DNA of 39,249 nucleotides from a virus (taxonomy: Duplodnaviria; Heunggongvirae; Uroviricota; Caudoviricetes): the IMG/VR virus record IMGVR_UViG_2519899835_000006, one strand, 5' to 3'. This document shows, piece after piece, positions 9,741-34,993 of the stretch. Position 1 is the first letter of the stretch. Each line of letters opens with the position of its first letter. The position numbers and the translations under genes are program-made. The notes under the pieces are model-generated. The model saw only the letters and a list, made by a program, of their open reading frames with translations. It ran no database searches and was not told the origin of the DNA.

Positions 9741-11203
9741 TCCACCGTAAATTGAATGCCTGATTTTGAGGTATATGATCCGGATTGACTCTGCTGCTGT
9801 TGGGTATTTGTCGGTTGTTGGCTATTGCTCTGTTGTTGACTATTTGCAGCACTTGAAACCACCAAAGCATCATAAACGCGACCAGACTGACCACGTAATG
9901 AGTTATATTGGCCCTGCATTTTTCGCATTTTTGTTTCAGTAGCAGCCTTGGAATCACCGGGCTGAGGCAGGTACATTTTGGAATACTCCTGCATCTCTGG
10001 CAGAGTAATTGCTGCACCTGTTTCTGGGCGCAAAATTGCATACAAGGCGTCTCTCGCATTTACCATATATTGCTGCTCCGCTGGTGATAGGCTTAAATTT
10101 GCAATAGTCCCATCACCAAGAGAGCGATTTATTAATGCAACTCGCTTAGGGTCAATGCTTTTACTAAGCTGATTCATTGAGTCCATTGAATCTTTTAATC
10201 GCAAAGCAAATCCTGCCGCCTTCTTGGAACCCTCATTAGCCTTATCTATGATGCTTTGCGCTTGTGGCAAGCTAATTGGTTTAATGCCATCACCAGATAT
10301 AGGTTGGTTTAGTTTTCCGGCTTCCTCGCTGCCATCGGTGTAATACTTAGTTACCGAGCCATCAGGATTGGTTTCAACCTTAAGTAATTTCTTAGCATTG
10401 GGATTAATTCCCGCCGCTGCCGCAAATGCCGCTGCACCATCTGGATCCGCCTTTAACATTTGCGCGTACTGATTGTAATTCTGCATTGCGGCTGTTGGTG
10501 CATATGCTGACGTTAACGCATTTGCTCGGCTAATATCCTGCCCTCTCGCCTGAAGTGCTTCACCAGCCTGATTGCTGCGGATTGTCTCTGCCAGCCTGCC
10601 TCGGTCAATATCACGACCAGCCATCTTGTCCTGAACATTGAAGTAATCAATCGGACCAAGAGCAGCCATTCCAAGGTGATCAACAAACTCACCAAATCCT
10701 GAAGGATTCTGCTGATACATCTGAGCAACGCTGTTAGGGTCAACACCGACGCGAGTCAGTTCCTTGGCGTTGTTTTGCAGCCATGATTGCATTGCTTCTG
10801 GAGACGATGACGCAAGGCGTGCGCCAGCCGCTAAGGTGCCGATAGAATTGCGCTGCTCTTCATCAATGAATCCCATGCCTTTACGAACGGATTCAATCTG
10901 GTCTGGATATTGAGTAGCCAACTGACGCAAAGCACCGCGATCACCAGACGCATAAGCATTAGCGTATGCCTGCTGAAATTCTTTCTGCCGCTGAGCCTGC
11001 TTTTCCTGCTGAACCCCCCCCGCAATACCTGAAAGGCCTTGCAAAGCAGTCAGCCCAACATTGTTAGCGCCTGAACGCTCAATATCATTGTTCTGCCTGA
11101 TAAGCTGAAGCGTATTGCCGATGTCATTTACGCTCGGAGCGTTTGAGTTGACGCCGCCGATACCAGCCAACAATCCGCCATTTGATCCTTGCCAAGTAGC
11201 CAT
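9737..11203 (-). CDS. Ejection protein, P22 gp20-like
   Basis: 488 aa, Gln/Ala-rich; synteny gp7-gp20-gp16. Confidence 0.8.
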
Positions 11204-11212
11204 GATTACCCC

Positions 11213-11905
11213 TTAAAACAACGAACCAAGCAATCCGATACCAGCACCAATGCCAGCGCCCCAAGGTGTTGATGTTCCCAAAAGGCTGGCAAGACCTGCA
11301 CCGGCAATCGCACCAGACGTTCCGCCACTAATTGCTGTCTGAAGACTTGATGGTTTGTTGGCATTAGCAGCGGCAAGAGCTGCGCTTTGCTGTGCAATGC
11401 TGCTCATGTTGTTGGCGTACGTCTGCCCGGCGTTTGCCTGACCTTGCAGAGCACCAAGCCCAACGTTTGCCAGATTGTTGTAATTGCTCATCTGATTTGA
11501 TAACCAAGACTGACCGAGTGTCGGCGCGATCGTAGCCAGTTGATTGCTTGTGGCTGTCGAACCAAGTCCACCCGTCGCCTCCGCAGCAGCAAGACTCTGG
11601 TAACGCGCCTGACCTGCAAGGTCTTTATACTGCTGAGAGTTGTAATACTGATTAAGTGCCTGCCCCTGACCTTCTAAACTGGAAAGATTCTGAAGCTGGT
11701 TAACATACTGCTCCGCAAGCGGCGTGAACGGAGCAAGGTTTTTCATGATCGTCTGCCACTGCTGATTTTGCAGGTCTGCGGCATACTTCTGAGCTTCTGC
11801 TGCATACTTTGCGCTTTTATCAGAGCTGCCACCTTTCCCGCCTTTTTCAGGGCAATAAGGTTCCTCGCCGCGCAGTTTTCTGCCCAGCTTAAATGCATAT
11901 AACAT
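11213..11905 (-). CDS. Ejection protein, P22 gp7-like
   Basis: 230 aa, Gly/Ala/Gln-rich low-complexity C-terminal half; synteny. Confidence 0.75.
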   Translation of the reverse strand: MLYAFKLGRKLRGEEPYCPEKGGKGGSSDKSAKYAAEAQKYAADLQNQQWQTIMKNLAPFTPLAEQYVNQLQNLSSLEGQGQALNQYYNSQQYKDLAGQARYQSLAAAEATGGLGSTATSNQLATIAPTLGQSWLSNQMSNYNNLANVGLGALQGQANAGQTYANNMSSIAQQSAALAAANANKPSSLQTAISGGTSGAIAGAGLASLLGTSTPWGAGIGAGIGLLGSLF

Positions 11906-27388: not shown

Positions 27389-27580
27389 TTATTTTTTATG
27401 CCTGTAACCCCATTCTTCCAGCAACCTTGCGGCGTACCACCCAAGAAACAAAGGAAAGAACATTACAATGAGATATGCCACGCCACGGTCAATGTTCGAA
27501 ATTGACCAGATTACGATGTAACCAGTGCAGGACAGGAATATTACAAACCCCAAAAAGCTACTTCGTCGACTCATGCTCAC
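27389..27580 (-). CDS. Small membrane protein, unknown function
   Basis: 63 aa with two hydrophobic helices. Confidence 0.4.
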   Translation of the reverse strand: MSMSRRSSFLGFVIFLSCTGYIVIWSISNIDRGVAYLIVMFFPLFLGWYAARLLEEWGYRHKK

Positions 27581-27861
27581 TCCTTCACTTTGATTCCAGC
27601 GGCGCGGATGGATTCATCGATATCGTCACGGTCGTACACAGCAATAGCATCACTGACAAACCATACAGGCAACTCAATTTCAATAGCTGCTCGCGATGCC
27701 TGCCACGTTTGCCAGTGGCCTTGAACATCGTCCATCACGTATTGACCACCAATATCACCACTGCCAATTTCATGGTGATTTTCAGGGTAACGGATAAGGT
27801 CTGATGATTCGCCTCCACGTCGCAACCAACTTTCTTCAAACTGCTTTCTTGATTCGTCCAT
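27577..27861 (-). CDS. Hypothetical acidic protein
   Basis: 94-aa ORF in operon context between helicase and ninB (the ren/ninA position). Confidence 0.45.
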   Translation of the reverse strand: MDESRKQFEESWLRRGGESSDLIRYPENHHEIGSGDIGGQYVMDDVQGHWQTWQASRAAIEIELPVWFVSDAIAVYDRDDIDESIRAAGIKVKE

Positions 27862-27878
27862 CGATACTTACCCTCAGT

Positions 27879-28085
27879 TCAACTCACAAAACGCCACGCC
27901 ATTTTTGCTACGACAACAGGCATAACACCGATAATCACCCAGACAAATGCAGCGCCAAACAACGTATACCATGGGTCTTTACCGTCATTCACAAGACGAA
28001 TGTAGCTATGCAGAACAATAAAAAACGTCAGAAGAATCCATCCAACGCCAACGCATTTGAATGCGACGAGCATAAACTCAGCCAC
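27879..28085 (-). CDS. Small membrane protein, unknown function
   Basis: 68 aa with two hydrophobic helices. Confidence 0.4.
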   Translation of the reverse strand: MAEFMLVAFKCVGVGWILLTFFIVLHSYIRLVNDGKDPWYTLFGAAFVWVIIGVMPVVVAKMAWRFVS

Positions 28086-28157
28086 GATTTACTCTCCCCC
28101 AAATAAAAAGGCCTGCGATTACCAGCAGGCCTGTTATTAGCTCAGTGATGTAGATGG

Positions 28158-29534
28158 TCATACGTCAGCCCCTTGTGCATATCGTCTGCCACGCGCAGCA
28201 GGTGCATTTGATGCTGTGCAAATCTGTCTGGCTTCATCCTGGTCACATGCAACAAAGTGTCCGTTACAGAACCGCTGGTAAACCGTACCAAGCGAGCCAA
28301 AACGGTTTTTCGTCACAATGATTTCAGCAAATGGCGCGGCGCTACTGTTCTCGTCATATACCGCTTCCCGATAGAGCATGATGATTGAGTCTGCGTCCTG
28401 TTCAATGCTTCCTGAATCACGCAAATCTGCGTTTGTCGGGCGTTTGTTTGGTCGCTTCTCAACATCGCGCGAAAGCTGACTTAGGGAGATAACAGGCGTT
28501 TTCAGGTCTTTCGCCATCGCCTTAAGGCTTCCGGAGATGTGAGCAATTGCGAGGTCGTTGCGATCTGCTTTCGGCTTCTCAATCAGGCCAAGATAATCCG
28601 CCATGATGAGTGACAGGTTTGGATTTTCCTGTTTGTGCCGTTCTGCGATTGAGCGTATTTCTTCGACCGATAACCGCGAGGCATCGACTACCCATACATC
28701 CAAATCTGCAAGCTGACTCATGCCGTTAGCAACACGCGCCCAGCCTTCGTCATCCATCGATGCAGGATTTCGCAGCACGCTAACCGACATCCTCCCGGCG
28801 TTGGCAATGCTTCGCTCTGCAATCTGCAATGCGCTCATTTCCATTGAGAAAATCAACACTCCGCGCCGGACGTCAGAACCAGGAATAACGCGGCTTGCAA
28901 CGCCTTCGGCAATCTTCAGCGCCAGTTCGGTTTTCCCCATACCAGGACGAGCAGCGATTATCACCAGGTCTTCTGCGTTCATCCCTCCGGTGATGGCGTC
29001 AAGTTCTTCGATTCCGGTCTTCAGGGTATCTGACTCTTCTCCGTTCCTCAGACGCCTGTCAAGCGTGTCAGTGTAGTCAGTGATGATTTCCCCTAACCGT
29101 ACAGGTTTAACCTCGTCACGGGGCTTTCTGATAGCTGAAAGACGCTTCACAAGCTCATCCATCGCCTGACTCGATGCGTCGATGGTTCCGCTCTGAATTG
29201 GTTCACGCATTTCATCCATGATTTCCAGCACCAGACGGCGGTGATAGTTATCCGCGACCATTCCGGCATATCCCTTCAGGTTTGCGGCACTCGGGCAGTT
29301 TTTGCTGGTCATCAGGATTGACGTGAAATGCTCCTCTCCGCACGCCTCGGCAACCATCAGCGCGTCGATTAGGTTTCTGTTTCGCGCCTGCTTGCGGATA
29401 ACCTCGAAGGCTTTCCGGTAGAGCGGAATTGAAAACGCTTCCGGCTCCAGCGTTGCCAGAACGTCGCTGGCGGTTGGTGTTAATCCACCAATCAGCAGGC
29501 CACCGATAACGCTCGCTTCGATATCCTGTTTCAT
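28158..29534 (-). CDS. Replicative DNA helicase, DnaB-like (P22 gene 12-like)
   Basis: 458 aa; Walker A ARPGMGKT, DnaB-type motifs; downstream of O-like initiator. Confidence 0.9.
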
Positions 29535-30478
29535 GCAATCCCCCTGTCTGCAAACTTCCCTTCCCGAACTCCCGTTAACGAATCTTCCCTCAGCAGGTAA
29601 TCAAAATCGGCCGTCCAGCCAGTGTCGTTGTCTCCGAAGTAAAACGGCTTGGCCTGATGTACAAACGCCCTGACATACGCTCTGAAACCGTCCACGTTTG
29701 GCGTTTTCAGTTGCGGGATGATTTTCTTCAGGCGGCGTTTGCGTTTCTCGTTGACCGCAACAGCGTGTGGCAGTCTGTCACCGACTTCGGTGTTGTAGGC
29801 GTTCAGGAAGGATTCGTAGTCGATTCGTTCTGCCTTGCGACGTTCAGGTTTAACCTGCCCATCGCCGCCCCCATTGGGGGGTAGGGGGGTATTATTTATA
29901 TTCTTGTTAATACCTTCTTGTTCATGATGTGCGGTTGTTTGTGCGGCTTCATGTGCGCTTTCATGTGCGGCATGTACTCTGAAAGCCGCGCCATTGCTGG
30001 CTTCGTCATGTGCGGCATCATGTGCGGTTGTTTGTGCGGCTTCATGTGCGGGTGAATTGTCCATTTTTTGAGCGTATTCATGGTAATTTGTGATGGTGAT
30101 CACACGACCTTTTTGCTTCTCTCCATCAATGGAGATCATCCCCTCTTTCACAAAAACCTGAAGCATCCGCTCAACCTGATCACGGCTTGCTGGCTTGCCA
30201 TGTCTGTCGCATAACTGAAGACCTAAATCAGCTGCTGTCACAACCAGTTGACCGGGTTGCAGATGCCATTCATGACCTTTGAAATTCGCTTTGTATGGCT
30301 TTCTGGCGGCATTCAGGAGAAGGTTTTCCCACAGGGTGCGAAGATAAACATCTTTCGCCCATGACTGTTTCAGAATGCTCCGGTACAACGGAATGTAACC
30401 AGTTTTCTGGTTCTCCATCCTGTTGCTCCTGCGCTCGTGTGCGGCGCTGAAATCGTAGATTTTTGCTGTATTGCTCAT
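29531..30478 (-). CDS. Replication initiator, lambda O-like (N-terminal iteron-binding domain) with internal repeat region
   Basis: 315 aa; N-terminus [10 protein letters not shown] resembles lambda O MTNTAKILNF; contains the iteron repeats encoding [14 protein letters not shown] repeats; ATGA overlap with helicase. Confidence 0.8.
29927..30051. repeat. Origin-of-replication iterons: 8 copies of (CA)TGTGCGG spaced about 12 bp, in two clusters of four, inside the O-like gene
   Basis: Direct reading; motif copies at about 29927, 29940, 29950, 29961, 30007, 30019, 30033, 30043. Confidence 0.7.
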
Positions 30479-30480
30479 AA

Positions 30481-30753
30481 CTACCTGCCTTGACGAAAGA
30501 CATTAAGAACATCGTTAAACTGACTTACGGATATGTCTTCTTTGAGAAGCTTTTCCAGAAATGTGTTTGGAATGAACGTATATCCCTCCTCTTTTGGTAG
30601 AGACGGGAGCAACGCCCTCGCCTCAGCCTTCAGAAGCTCAGTTCTGGCAACTTTCACAAAAGAGATTTGAGTTCTTTCATCAATGGAACGAAGGAAGCGC
30701 AAACGCTTAGCTTCTTTGTGTGTATCAGGTGGATTAAAGCCTTTGTTTCGCAT
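30481..30753 (-). CDS. Hypothetical 90-aa protein between cII and O-like gene
   Basis: Portion of track ORF 30481..31026 downstream of the cII stop, from internal ATG; alternative frame upstream overlaps cII and is rejected. Confidence 0.4.
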   Translation of the reverse strand: MRNKGFNPPDTHKEAKRLRFLRSIDERTQISFVKVARTELLKAEARALLPSLPKEEGYTFIPNTFLEKLLKEDISVSQFNDVLNVFRQGR

Positions 30754-30775
30754 ATAATTACCTCGTTGGATGTTG

Positions 30776-31069
30776 TTAAAATTCCATTTGTATTTGATCA
30801 GAACGCTCGGTTGCCGCCGGGCGTTTTTTATTGGTGAGAATCGAAGCAACTTGTCGTGCCAATCGAGCCATGTCGTCGTCAACGACGCCCCATTCAAGAA
30901 CAGCAAGCAGCATTGAGAACTTTGGAATCCAGTCCCTCTTCCACCTGCTGATCTGCGACTTATCAACTCCCACAGCTTCCGCTGTCTTCTCAGTTCCAAG
31001 CATTGCGATTTTGTTAAGCAACGCACTCTCGATTCTTAGAGCCTCGTTGCGTTTGTTTGCACGAACCAT
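30776..31069 (-). CDS. cII: Transcriptional activator CII (lambda-type); true start MVRANKRNEAL
   Basis: 97 aa MVRANKRNEALRIESALLNKIAMLGTEKTAEAVGVDKSQISRWKRDWIPKFSMLLAVLEWGVVDDDMARLARQVA... essentially lambda CII. Confidence 0.92.
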   Translation of the reverse strand: MVRANKRNEALRIESALLNKIAMLGTEKTAEAVGVDKSQISRWKRDWIPKFSMLLAVLEWGVVDDDMARLARQVASILTNKKRPAATERSDQIQMEF

Positions 31070-31120
31070 ATGTAAGTATTTCCTTAACAAATAAGAAGTT
31101 ATGCGCATCAACTTATGCGC

Positions 31121-31171
31121 GTTGTATTCCCGCATTTCGGCGGGAATGAGGACCATGACTGTTAAAGAGCA
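31121..31171 (-). promoter_or_regulatory. nutR-like site (boxA GCTCTTTAACAG and boxB hairpin TCCCGCCGAAATGCGGGA on - strand)
   Basis: Same boxA/boxB sequences as the nutL candidate at 32259-32298; located between cro and cII. Confidence 0.55.
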
Positions 31172-31177
31172 ATTTGC

Positions 31178-31363
31178 TTATGCCGCTTTGCGGTAAGCGC
31201 TTTCTTGATACTTCAGGGCGCCAGCTGTAACGACTTCCAGTCGATAGGCGTCTTTCTCTGGGATGACTTCCTTCCACTGAGAGACTGCTGCGTCGCTAAT
31301 GCCTAACGCTTTAGCTACAGCACGCTGGGTTCCGAAGTGGTCGATAACATCTTTCTTGTACAT
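31178..31363 (-). CDS. cro: Cro repressor (P22-type)
   Basis: 61 aa MYKKDVIDHFGTQRAVAKALGISDAAVSQWKEVIPEKDAYRLEVVTAGALKYQE... matches P22 Cro. Confidence 0.92.
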   Translation of the reverse strand: MYKKDVIDHFGTQRAVAKALGISDAAVSQWKEVIPEKDAYRLEVVTAGALKYQESAYRKAA

Positions 31364-31377
31364 AGACTCGCTCCGAA

Positions 31378-31444
31378 ATTAAAGAACACTTAAATTATCC
31401 ACTAAAGGAATCTTAAGTCAAGTTTATTTAAGATGTCTTAACTA
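31378..31444. promoter_or_regulatory. OR operator region with three P22-type operators and divergent PR/PRM
   Basis: ATTAAAGAACACTTAAAT (31378-31395), ACTAAAGGAATCTTAAGT (31401-31418), ATTTAAGATGTCTTAACT (31427-31444), each an imperfect 18-bp palindrome of the P22 operator type. Confidence 0.75.
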
Positions 31445-32094
31445 TGAAAACTCAATTGATGGGAGAGCGCATTCGCGCTCGGAGAAAAGAACTCAAGATC
31501 AGGCAGGCCGCACTTGGAAAGATGGTCGGCGTGTCTAATGTTGCCATATCTCAGTGGGAACGCTCTGAGACAGAGCCAAATGGAGAGAATCTTCTCGCCC
31601 TGGCTAATGCGTTGAAGTGTTCCCCTGACTATCTGATGAAAGGAGAGGAAAGTCTTTCAAACATTGCCTATCACAGTAGGCATGATCCAAGAGGGTCATA
31701 CCCTCTGATTAGCTGGGTGAGCGCAGGATGCTGGATGGAAGCTGTAGAACCATATCATAAGCGTGCAATAGATAACTGGTACGATACAACCGTAGACTGT
31801 TCAGAAGATTCGTTTTGGTTGGACGTGAAGGGAGACTCAATGACGGCTCCGGCCGGTCTCAGTATCCCTGAAGGAATGATAATACTCGTCGATCCTGAAG
31901 TAGAGCCGCGTAACGGGAAACTGGTAGTTGCAAAGCTCGAAGGAGAAAACGAGGCAACTTTCAAGAAGTTAGTTATTGATGCAGGCAGGAAGTTTCTAAA
32001 ACCACTTAACCCACAATATCCGATGATCGAGATCAACGGAAACTGCAAAATCATCGGCGTAGTTGTCGATGCAAAACTAGCAAACCTTCCATAA
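31444..32094 (+). CDS. c2: C2 repressor (P22-type, LexA-like autocleaving repressor)
   Basis: 216 aa; near-identical to P22 C2 (MKTQLMGERIRARRKELKIRQAALGKMVGVSNVAISQWERSETEPNGENLLAL...); C-terminal S24 peptidase-like domain. Confidence 0.95.
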   Translation: MKTQLMGERIRARRKELKIRQAALGKMVGVSNVAISQWERSETEPNGENLLALANALKCSPDYLMKGEESLSNIAYHSRHDPRGSYPLISWVSAGCWMEAVEPYHKRAIDNWYDTTVDCSEDSFWLDVKGDSMTAPAGLSIPEGMIILVDPEVEPRNGKLVVAKLEGENEATFKKLVIDAGRKFLKPLNPQYPMIEINGNCKIIGVVVDAKLANLP

Positions 32095-32119
32095 GGGGGC
32101 ATTCGCCCCTTTTTTATTT
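32095..32119 (+). terminator. Rho-independent terminator after c2
   Basis: GGGGC-ATTC-GCCCC hairpin followed by TTTTTTATTT immediately after the c2 stop. Confidence 0.65.
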
Positions 32120-32139
32120 CCTTTAAAAATCAAAGCCAA

Positions 32140-32215
32140 ACTTAAGTTACGAAAGAAAATTTAAGTTTTCTTCAAAAATACTCTTGACCATTAATTAAAG
32201 AGATCTTAAATTTAA
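32140..32215 (+). promoter_or_regulatory. OL/PL region: P22-type operator ATTAAAGAGATCTTAAAT (32194-32211) overlapping a TTGACC -35 (32184-32189)
   Basis: Operator half-sites matching those at OR; TTGACC then 17 bp then TAAATT; oriented toward N-like gene. Confidence 0.55.
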
Positions 32216-32258
32216 GCCATCAGCAGGACGCTGGTAGCCAAACGGAACAGATTGGCAG

Positions 32259-32298
32259 GCTCTTTAACATTGATGGGATTGTCCCGCCGAAATGCGGG
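32259..32298 (+). promoter_or_regulatory. nutL-like site (boxA GCTCTTTAACA, boxB CCCGCCGAAATGCGGG)
   Basis: boxA-like sequence followed 13 nt later by a short GC stem-loop; same elements found on the - strand downstream of cro. Confidence 0.55.
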
Positions 32299-32612
32299 AA
32301 CCAAAGAGTAGTTGGCTTTGGGGTGACGTGAAGTGCAGCTGCACGACGGCAACCGGAAGATAAGCACCCGGCGCGTCACCGCCAAAGTCAATTCCATAGG
32401 CGTTATGCAGCCGCCACCATATTCAAGAAAGCTGCACAAGAGGTAGGAGGATTTATGTGAATACTTACATTCAATTGAGAGATTAATTAAATAGAACTGA
32501 TCGAGCAGAGTCCATGAAGGCTCATAAATGCTCTTCCATCCCCGTCTAATTGGCGGGGAAGGAAACCACTTTGTAATAAAAAAATTCCAAAGTTGTTTCA
32601 TCGGAGGTCAAC

Positions 32613-33564: not shown

Positions 33565-34533
33565 ATGAGTGAAGTAACAGATTTAGTTGTTATTGAAAAA
33601 GCAAATGCAATGACTGTATTTCAGTCTGCCGACCAGATTGAAGAAATCCTTCAAAAGGTTGAACGTGAAGTTATGTCCTTTGTGCCTGATATCACAACGG
33701 CAAAGGGCAGAAAGGAGATCGCTTCTCTGGCGTATAAAGTTGCGCAGACGAAAACATATCTCGATGGTCTTGGCAAAGACCTTGTTGCTGAACTGAAGGA
33801 AATTCCAAAGCTAATTGATGCCAACCGCAAGACAGTGCGCGATCGCCTTGATGAACTAAAAGCCAAGGCGCGCCAGCCTCTAACTGATTATGAGGAGGAG
33901 CAGGCACGGATTAAAGCCGAAGAAGAAGCTAAGGCAGCAGCTGAAGCTCTCGCAAAGCAAATTGAGTCTGACCATGAAATAGCGATTTTGATGGATCGCG
34001 AATTTGACCGCCAAAGAGAAGAGGCAAGACTCAAAGCGGAGCAGGAAAAGCGAGAGCATGAAGAACGCTTAAAAAGAGAGGCTGAAGAGAAAGCCAGAGC
34101 TGAAGCCGAAGCAAAGGCAAAAGCCGAAATTGAAGCAGCAGCAAGGCGAGAAGCAGAAGCTAAGGCAGCAGCGGAACGTGCAGAGCGTGAACGTATTGAA
34201 GCCGAGCAACGAGCACAGCGCGAAGCAAAAGAGGCAGCAGAACGAGCTGAAAGAGAAAAGCAGGCAGCAATTGAAGCAGAACGCAGAAAAGCACAGGAGG
34301 AGGCTGAACGAATCCGTCGCGAGGCTGAAGCAAAAGAGCAAGCCAGAATAGCAGAAGAAAAAAGAATCAAGGACGAAGAAGAGCGTAGAGCAAAGGATAA
34401 AGCTCACCGGAAAGAAGTAAATAACAAAATACTTGCTGACCTTATCAAGGTTGGTGCATCAGAAGATGTTGCTAAAAATATCATAACAGCCATCGTAAAA
34501 GGCGAAGTATTCGCAACAAAAATAACCTACTAA
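33565..34533 (+). CDS. Hypothetical protein with about 200-aa E/R/K/A-rich helical (ER/K single-alpha-helix or coiled-coil-like) central region; track ORF starts 33511, ATG 33565 with GGAGGA RBS preferred
   Basis: 322 aa from MSEVTDLVVIEKANAMTVF...; central region is repeats such as EARLKAEQEKREHEERLKREAEEKARAEAEAKAKAEIEAAARREAEAKAAAERAERERIEAEQRAQREAKEAAERAEREKQ. Confidence 0.6.
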   Translation: MSEVTDLVVIEKANAMTVFQSADQIEEILQKVEREVMSFVPDITTAKGRKEIASLAYKVAQTKTYLDGLGKDLVAELKEIPKLIDANRKTVRDRLDELKAKARQPLTDYEEEQARIKAEEEAKAAAEALAKQIESDHEIAILMDREFDRQREEARLKAEQEKREHEERLKREAEEKARAEAEAKAKAEIEAAARREAEAKAAAERAERERIEAEQRAQREAKEAAERAEREKQAAIEAERRKAQEEAERIRREAEAKEQARIAEEKRIKDEEERRAKDKAHRKEVNNKILADLIKVGASEDVAKNIITAIVKGEVFATKITY

Positions 34534-34557
34534 TAAAACCAACATAAGGAACCACCC

Positions 34558-34689
34558 ATGATTTACGCAATCGCGGGAGGCGCTCGCATGGGTGCCTTCC
34601 AATTAAATGAATCTTTACTTGAACGAATCACCCGTAAATTACGTGACGGATGGAAAAGAGTTGAGGTCTTATTATGCGCAATGAAATAG
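34558..34689 (+). CDS. cIII: CIII (FtsH inhibitor) homolog (43 aa; below track cutoff)
   Basis: Hand-translated MIYAIAGGARMGAFQLNESLLERITRKLRDGWKRVEVLLCAMK; core ESLLERITRKLRDGWKR matches lambda CIII. Confidence 0.85.
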   Translation: MIYAIAGGARMGAFQLNESLLERITRKLRDGWKRVEVLLCAMK

Positions 34690-34826
34690 CCATCAATCAC
34701 CAGATGCTTCGTGCTGCACAGAACAAAGCAGTAATAGCCAGATTTATTGGTGATTCAAAAATGTGGCTTGAAGCAAATAAAGCGATGAAATCAGCTATCA
34801 ACCTTCCATGGTATCGCAGGAAATGA
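34674..34826 (+). CDS. kil: Kil-like small protein (50 aa; below track cutoff)
   Basis: Hand-translated MRNEIAINHQMLRAAQNKAVIARFIGDSKMWLEANKAMKSAINLPWYRRK; FIGD.KM motif and position after cIII as lambda kil. Confidence 0.5.
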   Translation: MRNEIAINHQMLRAAQNKAVIARFIGDSKMWLEANKAMKSAINLPWYRRK

Positions 34827-34993
34827 GCTTTACAGATAACTGGTCAGACGAAGAATTCATTCGTCAGATGAAAGAATTATTCGGTAACGAAGGAGATATT
34901 CATGTCACTTGCAACCACCGTGAAGGAGAGCAAGTTACAGAGACGCATGTACACGCAGCAGGCGTTAATGTATCGCCAGAAGGGAGATCGTGA
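34823..34993 (+). CDS. Small hypothetical protein (56 aa)
   Basis: ATG overlapping the kil-like stop (ATGA); MSFTDNWSDEEFIRQMKELFGNEGDIHVTCNHREGEQ... Confidence 0.3.
   Translation: MSFTDNWSDEEFIRQMKELFGNEGDIHVTCNHREGEQVTETHVHAAGVNVSPEGRS

Follow-up and report, generated by a model that had tools for sequence, protein, structure and literature searches.

Direct repeats inside a lambda-O-like initiator gene as the probable replication origin of a P22-like coliphage

Results

The window, the whole stretch of 39,249 nucleotides analysed here (IMG/VR record IMGVR_UViG_2519899835_000006), belongs to a P22-like (Lederbergvirus) coliphage and is ~98% identical to CUS-3 in the replication region. On its minus strand lies a lambda-O-like initiator gene (29531..30478, 315 aa) that contains the putative origin, and it sits upstream of a gene for a DnaB-type replicative helicase on the same strand (28158..29534), which overlaps the initiator stop codon. 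An earlier note, made from the letters of the window, had taken the repeat-bearing ORF for an O-like initiator, and this is borne out by matches to Pfam PF04492 Phage_rep_O (aa 20-132; E = 3.3e-15; score 56.8 bits, cut-off 28.7) and to PHROG 345, 'replication initiation O-like'; an NCBIfam search gave no match. The helicase gene matches Pfam DnaB_C (E = 9.5e-78), the DnaB N-terminal domain (E = 4e-13) and PHROG 19. The 948-bp initiator gene has 98.5% DNA identity to gene O of CUS-3 and is 98-99% identical to its counterparts in CUS-3, HF4s, Kapi1 and many Stx2a-converting phages. Another near-identical relative, IMG/VR contig L064, has an N-terminal domain identical to that of the window and few base differences in the origin region.

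The AlphaFold2 model of the initiator, for which only a shallow alignment was available, has a mean pLDDT of 57 and is moderately confident in the N-terminal domain. This domain (aa 1-140; 30059..30478, minus strand), presumably the winged helix that binds the iterons, is modelled with helices at 44-58, 82-88 and 99-112 and a hairpin at 115-129 in a winged-helix topology, at pLDDT 70-86. Foldseek searches against the PDB returned weak matches (best E = 0.017), of which nearly all the top ones were winged-helix DNA binders, CRP, CodY, ArsR/SmtB and MarR among them, and a sequence search of solved structures found nothing at E up to 1. Residues 138-216 are predicted to be unstructured (pLDDT below 50) and separate two folded domains, the second being a C-terminal helical domain (aa 217-315; 29534..29830, minus strand; predicted helices within 221-305) that we presume to be the helicase-recruiting module.

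Several further features of the surrounding region were recorded. An Rfam search of 27500-32500 found nothing at E up to 0.1, and a promoter scan of 29400-31200 found no sigma-70-like site. An AGGAG box lies 7 nt upstream of an internal ATG (Met21, codon 21; within 30400-30430, minus strand), and of seven loci inspected six retain the sequence GCGCAGGAGCAACAGGATGGA, with L005 having AGGAGTTCACGGATGGA instead. Many database entries start the initiator at Met21 (295 aa), while the start of the long form resembles that of lambda O, MTNTAKILNF; two initiator isoforms, one long and one started at Met21, are possible. The L005 record (OR850084.1, 'Staphylococcus phage SA 1298 Kay', 2692 bp) holds an enterobacterial-type initiator that is 62.5% identical overall to that of the window and matches it closely in the C-terminal part; it is flagged UNVERIFIED_ORG, and its organism label seems wrong. 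On the plus strand at 30800-30836 there is a strong terminator-like hairpin, a 12-bp stem followed by a T run, which is antisense to the 3' end of a cII-like gene (30776..31156, minus strand) and has the position of the lambda oop RNA terminator.

Within the initiator gene the earlier note had described eight TGTGCGG-type repeats at roughly 12-bp phasing in two clusters of four. A pattern scan recovers them as seven exact copies of TGTGCGG on the plus strand (29928, 29940, 29964, 30009, 30021, 30033 and 30045) and a single variant, TGTGCGC, at 29952, and the phasing within each cluster is exactly 12 bp. On the gene strand the core reads CCGCACA. Cluster I (30009..30051, minus strand) comprises four such cores, at plus-strand 30045-51, 30033-39, 30021-27 and 30009-15, which occupy equivalent positions in 36 genome loci. 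Cluster II (29928..29970, minus strand) comprises those at plus-strand 29964-70, 29952-58 (the variant, GCGCACA), 29940-46 and 29928-34, and the last core of one cluster is separated from the first of the next by 45 bp, start to start. The cores are 7-8 bp long, direct and without internal dyad symmetry. TGTGCGG occurs 11 times in the whole window and seven of these occurrences fall within 124 bp, where ~0.008 would be expected on one strand (Poisson P ~4e-19).

All eight cores lie in frame inside the initiator ORF, as had also been claimed, and in a single codon phase (xCC GCA CAx), so that they encode AHEA-type (Ala-His tetrapeptide) repeats at aa 143-184, inside the segment predicted to be unstructured. 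The residue that precedes each core varies (P, A, T, S) and the last two bases of its codon are constantly CC. The His/Met/Lys/Pro-rich ORF that the earlier note saw across the repeats does exist (29896..30081), although on the same minus strand as the initiator, in another frame, and not on the opposite strand as stated; the ORF truly opposite the initiator (plus strand, 29918..30055) is rich in Cys, Met, Phe and Gly. An extra core near the start of the gene (30438-30444, codon 12) was considered as an autoregulatory site and is probably a coding coincidence, because relatives of other core classes keep the peptide SAAH there without a core matching their class.

A tandem-repeat scan of the window found no comparable second repeat array in or near the replication module; its other tandem repeats are at 1145-1188, 1516-1550, 9798-9846, 11775-11816 and 34033-34883. 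The array at 1145-1188, 5.5 perfect copies of GTTTAATA, sits where the integrase ORF (1..1158) ends. A 640-aa ORF, acyltransferase-like by look alone, follows ~190 bp downstream, and the array might be a phase-variable tract.

Past the iterons, reading in the direction of the gene, lie an AT-rich region and then an inverted repeat. The AT-rich region, the presumed DNA-unwinding element, extends over 38 bp just downstream of the repeats (29890..29927, minus strand), where the earlier note had suggested looking for one; its GC content is 21% against 46% for the whole window, and GAACAAGAAGGTAATAACAAGAATA within it is kept across all iteron classes. The inverted repeat, CCCCC-AAT-GGGGG (29868-29881, gene strand), is preceded by a direct CCCCCC copy (29884-29889), and the combined sequence CCCCCC-TA-CCCCC-AAT-GGGGG (29868-29889), which could form a small hairpin, is the counterpart of the lambda ori palindrome. 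Other loci have CCCAC-GAA-GTGGG or CCCGC-GAG-GCGGG at this position.

A short inverted repeat was seen ~10-20 nt past the AT-rich region in most of the loci L004-L041 and in P22 (L123), HK97 (L124) and phage L (L125), and no perfect 5-bp inverted repeat was found past this region in several lambda-type loci. The arm pairs are diverse (CCCCC/GGGGG, CCCAC/GTGGG, CCCGC/GCGGG, GAATTC/GAATTC, GACATTC/GAATGTC, ATCTAATAA/TTATTAGAT and AGTCAAC/GTTGACT), and in some cases loci differ in both arms such that the bases still pair, although the amino acids encoded there are not the same. These comparisons suggest a conserved hairpin or cruciform element in the origins compared.

The comparison set consisted of 80 near-identical viral contigs together with 36 loci of other Enterobacterales genomes, contigs and loci alike being chosen by homology of the N-terminal domain alone, with the repeats not used as a criterion. 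The CCGCRCA class comprises 32 diverse loci with an N-terminal domain at least 65% identical to that of the window, and in 29 of them in-register cores are found at the same offset, arranged as 3+3 (26 loci) or 4+4 (3 loci) with the 45-bp gap. The three exceptions, L008, L039 and L021, are reduced or truncated. In L021 the automatic count was stopped by one non-matching unit, and L039 (a Symbiopectobacterium MAG) has one cluster of three cores without the spacer. L008 (Xenorhabdus ehlersii) loses similarity to the other loci right past the spacer, and its initiator gene seems truncated or rearranged; it is probably a decayed prophage.

Over the 188 units of the 32 diverse loci, the third codon positions of the core carry 2.0, 1.94 and 1.40 bits, against 0.30 bits at the first codon position before the core and 0.3-0.6 bits at the bases between cores (core position 6, a C, was fixed by the search pattern and its invariance is uninformative, while positions 2 and 5 were free to vary). 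Pairs of units within a cluster are 92% identical in the core and 49% identical between cores. In a set of 63 distinct alleles, each of 948 nt, the cores have a nucleotide diversity of 0.0086, the bases between them 0.042 and the spacer 0.063, with third-position diversities of 0.023 and 0.049 in the two folded domains. A block of 39 sites (gene nt 557-595, ~29884-29922), which overlaps most of the AT-rich stretch at 29890-29927, has zero polymorphic sites in these alleles. The bases between cores and the residues they encode thus drift while the third positions of the cores are nearly invariant, the reverse of what protein constraint would be expected to leave. Constraint, as read from aligned loci, is thereby shown to act on the DNA of the cores and not on the encoded peptide.

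The inter-cluster spacer (29971..30008, minus strand) carries a loosely conserved motif, CCAG(T/C)AATGGCGCGGCTT, which is seen again in phage L and, whatever the iteron class examined, in most of the loci, L041 being unclear. Its third codon positions are conserved at ~1.3 bits, and the 45-bp cluster-to-cluster distance is constant in two-cluster loci of the CCGCRCA class. We nevertheless rejected the central spacer as a clear functional site, as it is the most polymorphic part among close alleles and is missing from the common single-cluster alleles.

The number of cores differs widely even among near-identical proteins in public genomes, from 3 to 18. One-cluster alleles have 3, 4 or 5 cores, two-cluster alleles are 4+4 (as in the window) or 10+4, and three- and four-cluster alleles are arranged as 4+5+4 and 4+5+5+4, respectively. 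Single-cluster alleles with three cores and no spacer are common, so the two-cluster layout is not required for the protein. Judged by these alleles, the second cluster and the spacer are dispensable for an intact protein, and the linker tolerates large in-frame changes in length.

The cores fall into two classes, CGCACA in 23 loci and CG(C/A)GCA in 9, and the wobble base of the Ala codon is uniform within a locus in 187 of the 188 units. Homogenisation by concerted evolution was rejected as the source of this uniformity, given that the bases separating the cores are hardly more alike between the two clusters of a locus (identity 0.59) than they are from locus to locus (0.56). The two classes are split perfectly by two protein columns, A82/S and D100/H, with CGCACA going with Asp100 and CGCGCA with His100, although the loci may share ancestry and a mere 130-190 bp lie between the cores and the codons of the two residues, so that linkage may contribute and could yield the covariation without direct base contact. 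We therefore treat the covariation as supportive and not as proof of contact. Residue 82 is at the start of predicted helix 2, and residue 100 is in predicted helix 3, the presumed recognition helix.

Loci with N-terminal domains 47-52% identical to that of the window have unrelated cores (CCGATGAA-type, GAGGTAAC-type, GTCGAA/GACGAG and CCGATACAC) and keep the 12-bp phasing, the two-cluster layout (3+3) and nearly the same AT-rich sequence. The peptides encoded by their repeats are wholly different (PDEPCDKPSD, VEGSDEPP, EVTN), with phasing and layout unchanged. Relatives at least 65% identical in the N-terminal domain keep the core and its place even where the C-terminal domain and the helicase partner differ. 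A core that is kept at 65% identity or more and differs at 52% or less bears out the distinct replication specificity that the earlier note had proposed.

The initiator is a composite of two modules. Residues 190-315 are 97.6% identical to HK97 gp54 and 60.5% identical to P22 gp18, both encoded beside DnaB-type helicase genes. Residues 3-195, iterons included, are 74-77% identical to the initiators of Klebsiella and Yersinia phages that have the same iterons, a lambda-type C-terminal domain and a lambda-P-type partner. The junction of the modules lies in or just past the AT-rich region. Alignment of these relatives shows the N-terminal domain and the iterons as inherited together, and the C-terminal domain as travelling with the helicase or loader gene. 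In lambda O the labour is divided between an N-terminal part that binds the origin and a C-terminal part that binds the partner (PMC2629481, PMC8022706).

The earlier note likened the locus to lambda, whose origin lies in gene O, and the arrangement does correspond. Both initiators belong to PF04492 and begin alike, in both cases the part of the initiator gene that joins the N- and C-terminal domains contains the origin, and the order of iterons, AT-rich region and inverted repeat is the same. The likeness does not extend to the anatomy of the sites, since the iterons of lambda are four in number, 18 bp long and dyad-symmetric, with a spacing of 20-24 bp, whereas the window has eight direct cores of 7-8 bp at 12 bp; the further statement that the iteron sequence differs from that of lambda holds. 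In a pairwise comparison, similarity to lambda O is confined to approximately the first 65 residues of the window initiator. Lambda O recruits the P loader and host DnaB, whereas the window initiator is paired with a phage DnaB-type helicase.

P22 (gp18/gp12) and HK97 (gp54/gp55) share with the window the type of C-terminal domain, the DnaB-type partner and the position of the AT-rich region, while their N-terminal domains are unrelated to that of the window by BLAST. The AT-rich sequence is ACAAAAGACAATA, repeated twice, in P22 and HK97 and GAACAAGAAGG...AACAAGAATA in the window, and their inverted repeat, CCCCC-TAA(A/C)-GGGGG, is in the same place as the CCCCC-AAT-GGGGG of the window. Unlike the direct repeats of the window, the iterons of P22 are four dyad-symmetric sites (TTTACC..GGTAAA), as are those of HK97 (TTAGC..GCTAA). 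In lambda, P22 and HK97 alike, the four sites are dyad-symmetric, ~18 bp long and spaced at 20-24 bp, and past them come an AT-rich region and an inverted repeat (the lambda iterons are annotated in the record, the P22 record annotates a rep_origin and the HK97 sites were read from the sequence), and the cores of the window are not of this type of four dyad-symmetric iterons of ~18-19 bp. In the plasmid systems F RepE, pPS10 RepA and R6K pi, direct repeats presumably bound by winged-helix initiators adjoin an AT-rich region, as here, although the iterons of plasmids, unlike the cores of the window, measure 17-22 bp and recur about every two helical turns. As in the window, oriL of SPP1, the origin of G38P, lies inside the initiator gene, gene 38.

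Gene 18 of phage L / ST64T (rep_origin in MW013503) has a layout like that of the window, with three direct repeats, a CCAGTAATG(A/G)CGCGGCT spacer and three more repeats, and past these an AT-rich stretch followed by an inverted repeat. Read from the sequence, the phage L array consists of three TGTCCAACGGA units, a CCAGTAATGACGCGGCT spacer and three more units; this core is phased at 11 bp and read in three frames, whereas CCGCACA in the window is phased at 12 bp, in one frame and as 4+4. The phage L initiator is 22% identical to that of the window over the full length (E = 6e-11), and its region was already annotated as a putative origin by its authors (PMC8022706). The layout of two direct-repeat clusters at 11-12 bp around a CCAGTAATGnCGCGGCT spacer, with an AT-rich stretch and an inverted repeat, is present in the window and in most of the 36 genome loci, with two equal clusters in 29 of the 32 loci of the CCGCRCA class. 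The two-cluster direct-repeat layout is hence known from phage L, and the core of the window and its specificity class are newly described here. Of the 60 matching records listed, none carries an origin annotation at this locus. Literature searches on this core, and on the iterons of HK620, CUS-3 or Stx phages that have a helicase partner, turned up no description of the allele, and the work on Stx-phage origins that we did find concerns lambda-type iterons (PMC7466680). The literature searched held no experiment on binding, unwinding or origin firing for the window allele or a close relative.

Discussion

The eight repeats, the AT-rich stretch and the inverted repeat very probably constitute the replication origin of this phage, situated inside its initiator gene. 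Homology to lambda O and the covariation between core and protein suggest that the N-terminal winged-helix domain of the initiator would use its recognition helix to read each core, residue 100 lying close to base 5 of the core. Several initiator copies would bind side by side, and the geometry of direct repeats about one helical turn apart points to binding head to tail; the common 3+3 layout argues against obligate pairs within a cluster. The bound copies may distort the DNA and so open the adjoining AT-rich stretch, and the C-terminal domain would bring the phage's own DnaB-type helicase, encoded just downstream, as the joint inheritance of these modules suggests. The AHEA-type linker peptide would then be a by-product of the DNA sites.

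The origin would lie elsewhere if the repeats were no more than a low-complexity Ala-His linker made by slippage, with no role as DNA sites. The region is indeed predicted to be disordered, and the spread of 3 to 18 copies among near-identical proteins is what a slippage-prone linker would show. Such a linker does not account for third codon positions that are more conserved than first ones, for a residue before the core that varies while its last two bases stay CC, or for relatives whose peptides are wholly different and whose phasing and layout are the same. The phage L units are moreover read in three frames, and the replication module and its vicinity contain no second array of comparable kind, all of which leaves the linker only a slim chance of being the whole explanation. 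The repeats could also be real initiator sites that serve control, through autoregulation, titration, origin pairing or a block to transcription, with unwinding elsewhere. Direct repeats of the initiator site serve copy control in many plasmids, which gives this reading a precedent, and the natural variation in copy number is in keeping with it. We nonetheless hold it to be quite improbable, as an AT-rich stretch with invariant DNA and an inverted repeat directly adjoin the cores and the arrangement is collinear with the lambda and P22 origins; the extra core at 30438, near the gene start, is unlinked to iteron class in relatives, which argues against an operator.

Still less credible is the reading that the cores are weak sites, set in an array, to which a host protein, for instance DnaA, binds. 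The GCACA tail of the core looks like the DnaA box (TTWTNCACA) in its 3' half, and the phasing is near-helical; in E. coli oriC, arrays of four weak sites have 11-bp phasing. Only the NCACA half of the box fits, its 5' half being absent (by eye, the core with its 5' flank reads (A/C)(G/C)CCGCACA), and the core changes with the helix-turn-helix of the phage initiator, with unrelated cores in relatives that share the host group. Host DnaA is unlikely because a conserved host protein would not give this pattern of covariation between core and initiator.

If the locus is an origin, as we favour, the class formed by the window, its Enterobacterales relatives and phage L may use a mode of recognition unlike the binding of lambda O dimers to dyad-symmetric iterons. 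We put this forward tentatively, as a possibility that we rate somewhat below even. Single winged-helix domains would line up head to tail on cores of 7-8 bp, forming a short filament on each cluster, and core base 5, A or G, would be read by one residue, Asp100 or His100, where the recognition helix begins. If this is true, a single amino-acid change, along with synonymous substitutions in the codons of the linker, could reprogramme specificity.

These findings leave the established view of how lambdoid phages replicate as it was. The initiator-and-origin module is present in at least 55 full-length phage records, including 48 Stx2a-converting phages and CUS-3-type K1 coliphages, and knowing the origin and its specificity determinants would help to predict cross-activation or interference between the replication of co-resident prophages. 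A known origin also helps annotators to avoid spurious ORF calls across the repeats. The locus and its relatives are also a natural set in which to study the evolution of initiator specificity where sites and protein share the same DNA, with A- and G-class cores matched to D100 and H100 and with alleles that carry from 3 to 18 cores.
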